Of a DNA stretch of 64,000 bases, positions 10,496-64,000 are shown in pieces. The position numbers were made by a program, and so were the translations under genes. The notes under the pieces were generated by a model that ran no database searches, was not told where the DNA came from, and saw nothing but the letters and a program-made list of their open reading frames with translations. The DNA is from Felis catus (taxonomy: Eukaryota): contig NC_058368.1 of NCBI RefSeq assembly GCF_018350175.1, positions 76,508,001 to 76,572,000 of the forward strand. Direction: 5' to 3'. Each line of letters starts with the position of its first letter. Within the stretch, counting starts at the first letter, position 1.

Positions 10496-11539
10496 GGAGC
10501 AGCAATTGGGCAATTAATGGTAAAGCAGGTGCTGTGAATGAATTACAAGAAGCTGCCGGTGAAAACTAGGTTCGTGAGAAGCATTTTGCTTGCAAGGGAC
10601 AGGAATGGGACCCCAACAGAATCAAGCAAATACCGCAGAATAGACGAGTACCCAAGGGTTGAAACACCCATGTCGGGACCCTCCCCCCTGCTCCGTCCTT
10701 TCTCAGGCAGGCTGCCCCCCCCCCAAAGGCAAGCAGAACCCCAGCAGGTACAGGCTGCCCTGGTCCCTGCAGCCTCCCTCCAGGGATAGGGGCTCAGACT
10801 CTCAGCATCCATGGGAGTTCTTGAAGCAACAGGCCCACTGGCAGCCGAGGCCACAGGTCTGACTTCACCCGGAAAAGGGGGCCTTTATGATTCAGACCCC
10901 CACGTGGTGTAGAGGAACAGGGGTGGAGAGGAAAAGAACTTTCCAGGTATCAGGAGAGGGAGAACGTGGTGCGAGCGAAGCAAGACTAGCAAGGGTCTGC
11001 AGCACTGCCTAAGTGTTCGGGGAAGGCTTAGAGACACAAAGACCCTCCTGGTTAGGACCTTAAGGAAGCTGGTAACTGGTCAGGCTGAGGGTAGGAGGGA
11101 ACCGGTTCCAGGCAGAAGGAATGAAGTGTGCAGAAGCCCAGCGCTGGGTCCTCACGACCCCCTGTATCTGTGGTCACTAGGAGCAGAAATCCTAACTCCC
11201 GTCCCAAGGGGGGAGGGGGGATCAGCTTTGTTCTTTCCTAGAATTCTCACTGGCCAGCCTCCTTCCCAGGCGTCTCTACCTCCTGCTCTCAGGGTTAGGA
11301 GGACATTGGAGGTGACAGTTCCACTTCCGATCACCTCTGCTGCCGGATCCTCAGGGAGCCTCCCGCCCTCCCCCCCCCGCAGCACCCTGCCAAACACCAG
11401 GACTGTCCTCCTGGGACCCCGGCCCCTCCCCCCACGCCCCAGCACTCGGCGCCTCCCCCGCTTCCCAGACAGGCTCCTAGTTGTTGCACGGCCTCCGCCA
11501 GCTGCTTGCTCTACCTGGAAAACGGTCTCCTTGTGCACT

Positions 11540-11960
11540 GGCTGGCTGGTTATGACGTCACAAGCCACCACAATCCCACCAAGTGGCTCAAAACAGCGAC
11601 ACAGAGCTCTCGCCTCACTCTACTGGGGTCACAAGGCCCACACAAGACTCACCGAGCCAAAGTCAAGGCGTTGGGTGGGCTGCACCCCCATCTGGGGGCG
11701 GCTGTACTCCCTTACCTCTTCCAGCTCCTAGAGGTCCCCCACATCCACGGTGCCTGGCCGCTTCCTCCAGCTTCCGACCCAACGGCAAAACGAGCCCGTC
11801 TGGAATCTCCCCGCTCTGACTCCCTTCTGCCTCCCACGTCCACCCTTAACAAGGACGCTTGTGATCGCACCGGGCCCGCCTGCAGAACTCGGCCGACCCT
11901 CCCAGAAGTCAGCTCATTAGCAACCTTCACGGCACCTGCAACCTTAAACCCCACCCCCAC
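11540..11960 (-). mobile_element. MaLR LTR (MLT1D-like), unusually CpG-rich
   Basis: agtggctcaaaacag...gccaaagtcaagg...cttccagctcctagagg...cttctgcctccc...aaggacgcttgtgat...gtcagctcattagcaacctt matches reverse MLT1D. Confidence 0.7.
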
Positions 11961-12850
11961 CCCCACGGGGCCAACGTCATCTGCCGTAGTCACGAGGCTC
12001 CCGGGTGGCCATTCTTCCTGCAGTCGCGCAATTCCTATCCGTCTTGCCACCCCATGAACATTCGTGCTTTTGTCCACTCTGGGTGACATCGCCGGCTGTT
12101 CCCGGCGCGGGGGGCACACGTCTCTCTTACACAACCCCCCACTCCGCCCCTACGGCTCTCCAGAATCCGCCACCTCCTCTGGCGAGGCCCTCCCAGCACG
12201 CTGGGGTGGAGGGGGGCGGGCGGGGTCCACCTAGCGTGGGACGATGTGGTCCCATCGCCGGGTTCCAATGAGCTCCCTGTGTTCGCGTTTCCCACAGCAC
12301 CTGCAGTGGCCACACCGCCGTTGATGGTTTTCTCAGCGAGGACTCTCTATCTCCCGCCTGGCTAGTAGCAGGCCCCCAACGCTTTGCCGCAGACCCGGCC
12401 ACCCAGAGTCAGTCCAGGCTGGAGTGTTTAACCCATAGCTTCAGCTGGAAGGCCGAGGCCTCGCGCCATTCATCCAAAGGCTCTTTTGGTCTTTGTCCCC
12501 AAACAACTTCTCCCTGGGAAAAAGAAGCCGAGGTCACGTATCCTCTGTAGATGCCTAGCCCTAACCTACAGACCAAGAGGATGATCGCTTCACGTTGCCA
12601 ACGTTTATTTAGGTCCAAATTTTGCCGGGGGCGCTCGCATACGAGGCTCTATTCATAAGCGCTCCAGTCACAGCCCACAAAGAGTGACAACGATTGCCAC
12701 GTGTTATTTGTACACACCAACGCACGCGTTTATAATCAGCGCATTTGTGGCGAGTTTTGTTATTTGCCCAAAGATGGCTATCACGTAAATAAGGTCATGT
12801 TACCAAATTTCAGAATACCGGGTTACCCGCGAGATTTTGTGTGGCATCAT
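11800..12850. promoter_or_regulatory. CpG-island-like promoter, probably driving the minus-strand transcript
   Basis: High GC and CpG density, GC boxes (gggggcggggcggg ~12212-12225), E-box CACGTG 12698-12703, minus-strand donor TGT|gtaaga at 12131. Confidence 0.65.
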
Positions 12851-41163: not shown

Positions 41164-41295
41164 NNNNNNNNNNNNNNNNNNNNNNNNNNNNNNNNNNNNN
41201 NNNNNNNNNNNNNNNNNNNNNNNNNNNNNNNNNNNNNNNNNNNNNNNNNNNNNNNNNNNNNNNNNNNNNNNNNNNNNNNNNNNNNNNNNNNNNNN
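41164..41295. other. Assembly gap (132 N)
   Basis: Run of N. Confidence 1.
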
Positions 41296-52804: not shown

Positions 52805-53616
52805 GCTTTATTTTATTTCTTAATGGATGGACTGAAATATGTTTAACAGAATTCCTACTATTAGACCTTATATTCTTTCTCCCTCCTTCTTTCCTTCCTT
52901 CTTCTCTCCCTTCCTTGCTTCCTTCCTCTCCTCTTTGTGCCTTTCTTTCTCTCTCTCTTTCTTTCTTCTTTCTTTTAACTGGCAGGTTGACACTACAGAC
53001 CCCCATGCACATATCTTTCGAAATTTGTCAGATGATTTCCTTAAGGTAAAATCCTAGAGTGGCCAAAATGAACAAATCAAGAGACTATAGATGCTGGAGA
53101 GGATGTGGAGAAACGGGAACCCTCTTGCACTGTTGCTGGGAATGCAAACTGGTGCAGCTGCTCTGGAAAACACGGTGGTGGTTCCTCAGAAAACTAAAAA
53201 TAGATCTCCCCTATGACCCAGCAATAGCACTGCTGGGAATTTACCCAAGGGATACAGGAGTACTGATGCATAGGGGCACTTGTACCCCAATGTTTATAGC
53301 AGCACTTTCAACAATAGCCAAATTATGGGAAGAGCCTAAATGTCCATCAACTGACGAATGGATAAAGAAGTTGTGGTTTATATATACAATGGAATACTAC
53401 TTGGAAATGAGAAAGAATGAAATCATGCCATTTGCAGCAACGTGGATGGAACTGGAAGGTATTATGCTAAGTGAAATAAGTCAGGCAGAGAAAGATACCA
53501 TATGTTTTCACTCATATGTGGATCATGAGAAACTTAACAGAAGATCGTGGGGAGGGGAAGGGGGCAAAAAAAGTTACAGAGAGGGAAGGAGACAAACCAT
53601 AAGAGACTCTTAAATA

Positions 53617-61182: not shown

Positions 61183-61397
61183 GGGACACCTAGGTGGCTC
61201 AGTCGGTTAAGTGTCTGACTCTTGATATCCCAGCTCAGGTCGTGATCCCAAGGTTCGTGTGTTCAAGCTCCACATCAGGCTCTGTTCAGACAGTGCAGAG
61301 TCTGCTTGGGATTCTCTCTCTCCCTCCCTATACCCTTCCCTCATTCTGTCTCTCTCTCTCAAAATAAATAAGCTTAAAAACATAAAAATTAAAGTAA
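61183..61397 (+). mobile_element. Can-SINE (Fc3-like)
   Basis: TSD attaaatgc. Confidence 0.92.
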
Positions 61398-61657
61398 ATT
61401 AAATGCGAATGTGTCAGGTGAGTTTGAGATGAACAAAATCTCCACAGTGGACTTGGTTGATTTAGAATAGGGTTTCGGGGTGCCTGGGTGTCTCAGGCAG
61501 TCAAGCGTCAGACTTCAGCTCAGGTCATGATCTCACAGCTTGTGAGTTCGAGCCCCGCGTCGGGCTCTGTGCTGACAGCTTGGAGCTTGGAGCCTGCTTT
61601 GGATTCTGTGTCTCCCTCTCTCTCTACCCCTCCCCTGCTCATGCTCTCTCTCACTCT

Positions 61658-62504
61658 TGAAACAGCAGACCTAGGCCGGCCGACTAGTGACTATGTCCCT
61701 GACATGGCCGCAGAAAGAGGTTCCCGCTCAAACCTCAGACCACACCTCCTCCCCTTGAGTAACTCATGCTTTCTAAGAAAGCAGGCTACCGATTGATACA
61801 TTCTTCCGAAGTCTAAGGTGGGAGGAAGGGGAGTATGAGAGGCGTGGAAAGTGTGAGTAGAAGAGGGAGGGCTTCTCTCAGGTAGGGGCCAGAGGCAGGA
61901 GCCCTCAACCCTGTCCAGGCTTAGAATGACCTGGGAGCATGTTACCCCTCCCCAAACCAATTAATCAGAGTCTCTGGGGATGGTGTTTGGTGCTAGGTAT
62001 TTATATAGCACAGCAAGGCTGACAGCCAATGGTTAATAGGTGACCAGTGAGAAACGTTCTGTGTACATTGAGGCTAAACATGTTAGAGACCCTCAGACAC
62101 AGTGGTTCTTAAACTTCAGGTGCATCAGAATCTCCTGGAAGACTTGTTCAAACACAGATTGCTGAGCCCCACCCCCAGAGTTTCTGATTCAGTGGGTCTG
62201 TGACCACCAGGCCCAACATTTGCATTTTTAGCAAGTTCCAGGTGACGCTGATAGTTACTGATCTGGGACCACACCTTGGCAGCCATTGTTCTATCCTTCC
62301 CCAGCCAATCGGCTAAGGCCATGATCCCTATAAAATCTTTGTGCTTTTGAACCCCCCACCCCCACCCCAGTATCTCATCACTCTGTCGCCCTGTCGGTGC
62401 AGGTAGGGGATTGAGCTGGAGCTAGCTTGAATAAAGGCTCTTTGCTTTTGCATTGGACTCGGCTCCCTGGTGGTCTTTGGGGATCACGAATTCTGGGCAT
62501 AACA
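61658..62504 (+). mobile_element. ERV1-like solo LTR (847 bp) with an internal host-like segment
   Basis: TG...CA ends, 4-bp TSD ctct, CCAAT ~62305, TATAAAA ~62329, AATAAA ~62430, U5 end ctgggcataaca. Confidence 0.85.
62100..62288 (+). mobile_element. MER5A (hAT-Charlie), full length and diverged, lying inside the LTR
   Basis: cagtggttcttaaactt...gcatcagaatctcctgga...aaacacagattgctgagccccacccccagagtttctgattcag...atttgcatt...caagttccaggtga...gggaccacac; 189 bp. Confidence 0.9.
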
Positions 62505-64000
62505 CTCTCTCTCTCAAAAATAAATAAACATTTAAAAAAAAATAGGGTTTCATGGGTCAGATACAAACTGATAGGAAGTAGTGAATTCCCAGACTGTCCC
62601 CATTTCACTCACTCTGTCTCTTCTTTTCACTCACATCACTCTCATATGTGATGTTGTTTATCACATACCCTTTGCTGAGAATTGAGTAAATGGGGGTGCA
62701 CAATAGTAAACAGTGATTTTTCTGCCACCTAAGATGTTCCCAGCTAGTGGGAGAGACAATCAGGTTTAAGAGGCATCACAGCATTTTGTCATACTGGCCA
62801 TGAGAAACGATGTAACGTGTTTGGGCAGCAAATTGGAGAGGCAGCCGAAGGGCAGTAGACGGTTGCTGTATCTCCAGCATCCATCCTGTGTCTGGAGACA
62901 GCATCCTTCTTTGATCTGAAAGCTGCCCCACCGTCCGCTGAAGCCACCCTCCTAGCTCTGGGCCTCCCCCCATTCCCCACCGCAGTGGGCGGATAGCCCC
63001 AAAATGGCCTCCATCCTCCTGGCCACAGTGTTTGGTCCAGGATGAGTAGACGACCAATGTGAAACACTTCTTGAGATTTTCTTCACAGACGCTCAAAGAG
63101 AAAAGCCATAATGTTAGCCAATGAACGTGCATTTTTTCTTACATTTCCTTGAATCGGGCTTTGTTCACCCACAACCGAATGAATCTTACCTGGCACAGAG
63201 GCATTCTAGGAAGAAAACAACCAGGGATGGCAAGAACGTGGTACCTTCATGGTGCAGCTAATAGAGAAAAGAGACATTTGTCCTCTTCCACCCAACCCCT
63301 CACTTTGCCCATATTGTTTTCACAGTTTGACGCTGACATTTTAACCCCGTCGCTTTTTCTGTGTCCTGCCAAGACCTGGACTGTAAGTATGCAGTGGATG
63401 CAATGGTAGGATGTGCACAAAAGAAATCGATGACCGAAACAAACGGATCATCCGACCATTCTGGACAATCTTGGAACACCTGTGAGAATCGTTTCATATA
63501 GTCCCCTGAATTAAATAAAGGCACATGTAATAAGGTTTTCATCCAATTCATAATAAACAAATGTTGAAGACTATAATGAACAAGATTAAAAATTTAATAA
63601 GGGCTCAACCTAGACATGGAAAAAATTTGAATCTAAAAATTTCACCAAGAGAAACACAGACTTGGTAGAAATGACAGGCACACCGTGCATCGTACAATGG
63701 AAGAAAATGGAATTCGAAATTTTAATTTTGTGAAATAATATTCTAAGTACTCTGATACAGGGATGCCTGATCAATAAATCAAATATCAAGTATAAAATGA
63801 ACACAGATATAATTTTCCCAATGAGATTGTTTCAATTAGAAGAGTCAAAATAAACTGTATACAGTTCAATTGTGTTACATAAACATTTAGACAGGCAGTA
63901 ATTTGGTTTACTGTATCAGCAAGAGAGAATATCCTCTCAGCAAAACTCACCTTGAAGTTAATTCAGTGGGATTAGAAGCTATTGATTCCATATGTACATC

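Follow-up and report, generated by a model that had tools for sequence, protein, structure and literature searches.

Host DNA with an old MER5A element in the U3 region of a young cat LTR: a candidate for capture in a replicating retroviral lineage

Introduction

MER5A is a DNA transposon of early-eutherian age. In a 64-kb window of cat DNA (by 'window' we mean the whole stretch that was analyzed), a decayed MER5A lies within the U3 region of a long terminal repeat (LTR), and this LTR in turn interrupts a feliform Can-SINE, an arrangement in which the oldest component is found innermost. The locus therefore raises the question of how old host DNA came to reside in a young LTR, and whether this was a single event or the mark of a whole LTR subfamily. 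The sequence-only reading that preceded this analysis offered two candidate routes, retroviral template switching or templated repair of a double-strand break. We judge these to be the right candidates, and published lists of cat and tiger LTR positions lean towards the first. Our favored account, to which we assign a probability of roughly 0.55, is that the window LTR is a solo remnant from a chimeric subfamily within FcERV_gamma6 (FERV1), with the host DNA captured in a replicating lineage. That this subfamily has multiple copies, and that a template switch gave rise to it, are matters that we infer.

Results and discussion

A young LTR splits the CT tract of a feliform Can-SINE

The nest comprises the following features, given in window coordinates, with the strand where one applies.

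61466..61476, plus strand: target-site duplication (TSD) of the SINE, left copy, from 11-mer identity
61477..61657, plus strand: 5' part of the Can-SINE, with its tRNA-like head and most of the CT tract; subtype IIA/SINEC_Fc2-like
61654..61657, plus strand: 4-bp TSD of the LTR, left copy (right copy at 62505-62508); weak, as it sits in the CT tract
61658..61762, plus strand: 5' part of the LTR U3, from by-eye comparison with the FERV1 LTR at KIT
61763..62294, no strand: 532-bp non-LTR insert with a CpG o/e of 0.16 and neither TSD nor poly(A) of its own, delimited by comparison with the LTR at KIT
61767..61783, no strand: perfect 17-bp palindrome with a TTC-N3-GAA core, adjoining the 5' junction of the insert
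61915..62040, no strand: possible second MER5-like relic, weak
62100..62288, plus strand: full-length but decayed element of the MER5A family (hAT-Charlie), 189 bp, 8-bp TSD not intact
62295..62504, plus strand: LTR core of 210 bp, with CCAAT at 62305, TATA at 62329, AATAAA at 62430, and R-U5
62505..62540, plus strand: 3' part of the Can-SINE, with the remaining CT tract and the A-rich tail
62541..62551, plus strand: TSD of the SINE, right copy, from 11-mer identity

The perfect 11-bp duplication that brackets the SINE (61466-61476 = 62541-62551) involves an 11-mer that occurs only twice in the whole window. Between these copies, the SINE is cut in its CT tract at 61657/62505 by an element of 847 bp that runs from TG at 61658 to CA at 62504. 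The 5' part of the SINE (61477-61657) is up to 87.5% identical to other copies in the window, and the SINE resumes at 62505. The sequence-only reading had described a Can-SINE with a perfect 11-bp TSD whose CT tract is split by an 847-bp TG...CA element, and the exact 11-mer pair and the coordinates agree with that description. It had also noted a 4-bp duplication (ctct) as the TSD of the LTR. This duplication is indeed present, but it is weak evidence because an apparent 4-bp duplication also results from 49 of 217 cuts placed at random in SINE CT tracts. The split tract adds up to 25 bases, or 21 when the 4-bp duplication is subtracted, compared to a median of 19 in the 20 of 21 other copies that have the anchor, and therefore no SINE sequence was lost when the LTR inserted.

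The head of the focal SINE diverges by 10.4% from the majority sequence of the 21 other SINE copies in the window, or by 6.4% when CpG sites are left out. When aligned with the diagnostic positions presented in a published survey (PMC4084570), the copy lacks the subfamily I motif and retains the T that is missing from subtype IIB. It matches the subfamily II motif only in decayed form, and its CT tract, A tail, and TSD are all present. By these sequence characters we classify it as a feliform Can-SINE of subfamily II, subtype IIA (SINEC_Fc2-like). The subtype IIA group originated from about 35 Mya, and subtype IIB elements are confined to felid clades (PMC4084570); the one-base deletion that we take as the mark of subtype IIB occurs in 5 of the 21 other window copies, which makes a felid origin of the window probable. 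Another Can-SINE, of older appearance and oriented like the focal copy, lies ~80 bases farther upstream (61184-61385, 70% identity to the focal copy).

The LTR belongs to the FERV1 family

The split-in element carries CCAAT (62305), TATAAAA (62329), and AATAAA (62430) in LTR order. Neither a primer-binding site nor internal viral sequence was found adjoining it, and for this reason we consider it to be a solo LTR. Its family was assessed by comparing the minus strand of the window by eye with the FERV1 provirus at KIT, which is printed for the opposite strand in Figure S1 of PMC4199695. The R-U5 segment (62393-62504) is identical to the printed KIT copy at 108 of 112 positions, and three of the four mismatches fall on CpG sites of that copy. 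Likewise, the U3 stretch at 61738-61762 is identical at 25 of 25 positions and the first 25 bases of the LTR at 19 of 25, with the middle of the U3 5' part being too diverged to align. Thus, the segments on either side of the insert, previously assumed to be the two ends of one LTR, do align to both ends of a single published LTR.

From these sequence matches we assign the window LTR to the family known as FERV1, ERV1-1_FCa, or FcERV_gamma6, and its diverged U3 5' half marks a U3 subtype other than that of the KIT copy. As described in PMC4643047 and PMC4199695, this family shares its R-U5, U3 motif, termini, and solo form with the window LTR, and its 4-bp TSD has a weak counterpart in the duplication at 61654-61657. 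The differences are the diverged U3 5' half, a core that is 19 bases shorter from CCAAT to the end (200 bases versus 219 in the KIT copy), a U3 motif that is single here and present as tandem 46-bp repeats in FERV1, an overall length of 847 bp versus a 353-bp consensus, and the added 532-bp host insert. The published counts of FcERV_gamma6 are 832 copies in cat and 730 in tiger, with none in dog, panda, ferret, or seal (PMC4643047), and dated cat proviruses range from 0.9 to 19.5 My (PMC4643047, S1 Table). No second copy of this LTR was found within the 64-kb window at word sizes of 4-7, a blastn search of a plasmid collection with the LTR returned no match, and an exact scan of GTDB genomes for the U5 motif, which serves as a check for felid contamination, yielded 0 hits.

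A block of foreign-looking DNA occupies the slot upstream of the CCAAT box

Homology to the published FERV1 LTR ends at 61762 and restarts at 62295, ten bases ahead of CCAAT, which places the junctions by eye at 61762/61763 (plus or minus about 4) and at 62294/62295. Between these points the printed KIT copy has 34 bases and the window has 532. The KIT spacing falls to 21 if the ten bases of the window are aligned to the alternative copy of a short repeat. What had been noticed from the letters as about 530 bp of genomic-looking DNA within U3 can now be given as 532 bases at 61763-62294 that are foreign in CpG content. The CpG o/e of the insert is 0.16, compared to a median of 0.41 across the 103 non-SINE tiles of the window, of which only 2 are as low. 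The block is placed such that all cis elements needed for replication are spared, and host DNA reaches to within 6 bases of the conserved core. Searches of the 64-kb window, which ends 1.5 kb to the right, revealed neither a donor nor a second copy of the insert at word sizes of 4-7.

These characteristics make the insert look foreign both to the LTR and to its neighborhood, and we conclude that a block of host DNA, in which MER5A lies with its own surroundings, was copied in from a more CpG-depleted region. We also considered an L1-mediated, or class 1, templated insertion and rejected it, as a TSD of at least 5 bp and a poly(A) tail are both absent from the insert. Judged from the sequence, the presence of captured host DNA in a young LTR appears to be real and well bounded.

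The MER5A element arrived as part of the block

The element at 62100-62288 is one that we take to be MER5A, and we likewise presume that 189 bp is the characteristic length of that family. Its terminal repeats are identical at 9 of 16 positions, its residual palindromy is equaled in 10 of 1000 shuffles, its fold has a z score of -2.17 (6 of 200 shuffles), and the 8-bp sequences flanking it agree at 3 of 8 positions. The element ends six bases before LTR homology restarts. Moreover, positions 62221-62238 match 18 bases of miR-544, with full identity to the sequence tabulated in PMC10671384, where this microRNA is described as derived from MER5A1 (hAT-Charlie). A complete but diverged MER5A lacking an intact 8-bp TSD, as first proposed for this segment, is thus supported by its termini, palindromy, microRNA identity, and flanks. 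This copy retains a long-hairpin fold, and in a 3' LTR the segment at 62221-62238 would belong to viral RNA.

MER5A did not transpose here, because it is decayed and without a TSD, it is accompanied by 337 bases of extra DNA, and the LTR family is young, with dated proviruses of less than 20 My. The earlier reading had reached the same conclusion, and transposition of MER5A at this site was rejected on the basis of the absent TSD (flanks 3/8). Its claim of a second relic fared less well. A 27-base stretch with 81% inverted similarity to MER5A was found (3 of 1000 shuffles, in a region picked post hoc), but its E value of about 0.07 to 0.3 across the window and its lack of any palindromy of its own leave this feature weak, and the label MER5-like is our assumption.

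Features near the junctions

Adjoining the 5' junction, the perfect 17-bp palindrome is followed by a TTC-N4-GAA site at 61801-61810, which lies 34 bases beyond it. We presume that STAT-type is the appropriate motif name for both the palindrome core and this second site. There are 12 distinct palindromes of 17-bp size in the 64 kb, several of which are A/T runs, and the one at the junction could be either the scar of a fold-back or a site selected for enhancer function. The same junction is straddled by a small hairpin that includes an AP-1-like site (61756-61766).

A word of ten bases is common to the U3 motif (61738-61747) and the 3' end of MER5A (62267-62276). Both copies sit 15-18 bases upstream of a junction, an arrangement matched by 8 of 5000 random 40-mers, although the word was chosen post hoc. 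We did not adopt it as the site of a template switch, given that it is 15-18 bases off the junctions.

Published coordinates lean towards a multi-copy subfamily

If other LTRs carry the same insert, they should be visible in published coordinate lists as cores whose homology to the consensus breaks near the CCAAT box. We used S1 File of PMC4643047, which gives RepeatMasker coordinates relative to a 353-bp consensus, in the form of parts 1, 6, and 32 of its 38 parts supplemented with start-position searches. Consensus position 118 was equated with window position 62295 by length only, and the expected row is one of ~210 bases starting near CCAAT. When its span is computed by subtraction, as for the list rows, the window core measures 209.

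Among the 53 cat solo rows found to start at consensus 118-123 of ERV1-1_FCa-LTR, 21 span 203-213 bases and thus resemble the window core; these are 21 of the 744 cat solo rows in the file. The short rows are concentrated at particular starts, with 12 of 16 rows at 118, 1 of 5 at 122, 8 of 27 at 123, and 0 of 5 at 119-121, and the start-position searches returned no cat rows starting at 113-117, 120, or 124. For tiger, short solo rows account for 5 of 11 at start 118, the single row at 115, and at least two at 123 (2 of 14 among the 25 rows there). One full provirus starting at 118 is listed in cat, on NC_018741.1 near 69.17 Mb, and one in tiger, on NW_006712746.1 near 1.52 Mb.

Counting in favor of a subfamily, part 6 also includes 7 rows (of 123) that span 316-324 bases and align from position 1-3, and these possibly represent an insert-free version of the short-core form. 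Homology breaks at the CCAAT boundary are nevertheless generic. A longer core is present in 32 of the 53 cat rows with starts at 118-123, and the rows of pangolin and bat likewise accumulate at single internal start points, so that subfamilies with a swapped or diverged U3 can break there in the absence of any host insert. The short class could be an insert-free subfamily whose U3 has merely diverged. No row near 847 bases occurs in part 6 or among the part 1 solo rows, with the longest being 585, but this absence says little because fragments in the list appear to be unjoined. However, if the insert were private to the window, then the placement of its junction on the break point of ~20 other short-core copies would be due to chance. 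The lists, which record positions and not the insert itself, hence lean towards a multi-copy subfamily.

One further entry involves a similar distance. At 64591937-64592706 of cat NC_018741.1, two 239-base LTR-core fragments of FcERV_gamma6 lie in tandem exactly 530 bases apart, a spacing that is probably unrelated to the 532-base insert.

A model for capture, and its rivals

According to the account we favor, ~530 host bases from a distant locus would have been copied into the U3 of an ancestral felid element. After copying R and the core promoter, reverse transcriptase would have jumped to a co-packaged cellular RNA, followed it for ~530 bases, and then gone back to U3, such that the block took the place of a short segment lying upstream of the CCAAT box, on the far side of which is the U3 repeat motif. 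The integration ends, CCAAT, TATA, and the poly(A) signal would have been left intact, and the element would still have been mobile. Only chimeras retaining both ends and these three signals could spread, and the anatomy of the window LTR matches this expectation. One copy would then have landed in the CT tract of a Can-SINE older than itself, and LTR-LTR recombination would have reduced it to a solo LTR, with the old MER5A being carried along as a passenger. We favor capture in the replicating lineage because the cat and tiger lists, in the parts covered, contain a short class with a core of ~210 bp that breaks near the same point.

A more ambitious version is decidedly tentative. It would date the capture before the cat-tiger split, attribute the retention of the block to enhancer sites such as the STAT-type palindrome, and have the chimera reach perhaps 20 loci or more in each genome, whereby a long-extinct DNA transposon was re-amplified as a passenger and its donor locus could be traced. 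A borrowed-enhancer role for the insert is only a candidate function.

The most serious competitor, although we consider it clearly less likely than capture in the lineage, is a one-off repair event, in which a germline double-strand break in the U3 of an ordinary short-core LTR or provirus was sealed with a patch of ~530 bases from a distant locus, through end joining that used a cDNA or DNA template. The absence of a TSD and poly(A), the small loss of target relative to the KIT copy, and a donor that is not local all fit class 2 templated insertions as characterized in PMC5110952. Such a repair could have left the palindrome next to the 5' junction as a fold-back scar, and a second copy of the insert is absent from the 64-kb window. 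Against this, a random break is not expected to land within 6 bases of a conserved core boundary, and 532 bases is long compared with the experimental insertions of 73-414 bases (median 191) reported in the same source. A separate cause would also be needed for the ~21 cat rows that share the core length and break point. Another way to account for the intact ends and the location within U3, with no need for other copies, is that the template switch took place in the single round of reverse transcription that made this provirus and the chimera never spread. The 10-base word near both junctions would suit such a dead end (8 of 5000 random 40-mers), but it is not located at the junctions themselves, and a lone chimera is much less likely to be encountered than a member of a 20-copy class. 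We regard this explanation as improbable.

Less credible still is that the nest reflects an assembly chimera or a direct transposition of MER5A into the LTR. The sequence comes from one assembly and has no read support, and yet its outer layers are exact in the 11-bp TSD, in the TG and CA termini, and in the length of the tract. The sole run of N lies 20 kb away (41164-41295, 132 N). As for transposition, a MER5A within an old sirenian LTR has been reported to result from this simple process (PMC3758187). However, in the element studied here the termini are decayed, a TSD is lacking, and 337 bases of extra DNA lie alongside. Furthermore, MER5A is reported in sirenians (PMC3758187) and in macaque (PMC10671384), and hence in both Afrotheria and primates, whereas the dated proviruses of the LTR family are all younger than 20 My.

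Precedents and significance

All three component families and both candidate mechanisms are already known. One precedent is the 190-bp insertion in the LTRs of polytropic MuLV, which derives from another LTR-like repeat. All polytropic MuLV ERV LTRs have this insertion in U3, where it disrupts the enhancer, and it is absent from infectious viruses (PMC4306825; PMC2241634). As in the window LTR, a gammaretroviral LTR holds extra DNA at the place of its U3 enhancer. In contrast, the MuLV insert is common to a whole amplified endogenous group, a sharing between copies that we infer for the window LTR, and it is shorter, whereas the window insert is ordinary chromosomal DNA with a DNA-transposon fossil. 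The precedent also cautions that U3 inserts need not be enhancers, because no infectious virus is reported to have the 190-bp insert (PMC4306825).

Class 2 templated insertion polymorphisms (PMC5110952) share with the window insert a patch from a distant locus, the absence of a TSD and poly(A), and a small target deletion, but they are single-locus events at seemingly random sites, unlike the window insert with its junction at a functional LTR boundary. The transduction of the X region by XR-FeLV (PMC10878261) resembles the proposed capture in that a feline gammaretrovirus gains unrelated sequence by recombination. There, however, the donor is the leader of another ERV, the site is outside U3, and the virus is exogenous. 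Song et al. 2013 reportedly provides an inventory of cat ERVs. In the text of the literature matches listed, we found no description of a FERV1-family LTR with a MER5 insert.

New enhancer modules in the U3 of LTRs are usually inferred to come from point mutations and from viral recombination between subfamilies. Here, an old transposon fossil marks the insert as host-derived, and so the donor locus, the junctions, and a date are recoverable. If the cat and tiger class has the insert, it would provide a natural comparison set in which some LTRs contain captured host DNA and others lack it, and the family concerned is one that has recently altered coat and eye color by insertion (KIT, PAX3). 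In this case, some cat MER5A annotations would also be passengers of young LTRs that mislead the dating of repeats. If the insert is a single repair patch, it would be a tidy curiosity.

Genomic context of the window

The CpG o/e of the window is 0.46 overall and 0.44 outside SINEs, values that are high for non-island mammalian DNA, and Can-SINEs are dense; perhaps the window is subtelomeric or pseudoautosomal. A Pfam scan of 227 of the 231 stop-to-stop frames of at least 75 aa (four containing N were omitted) produced one weak match below the cut-off and no detectable exon. Its single assembly gap is the 132-N run at 41164-41295. In an Rfam search of the whole window, the one match was a SINE-derived tRNA-like sequence.

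Two other regions drew attention. Overlapping long open frames are present in a GC-rich stretch at 11126-12057, which was rejected as a related provirus as it has no Pfam match and no similarity to the LTR at 61658-62504; part of it presumably is an old MaLR-type LTR. Finally, the segment at 53050-53610, which we take to be a C-terminal fragment of L1 ORF2, retains an intact frame of 184 codons.
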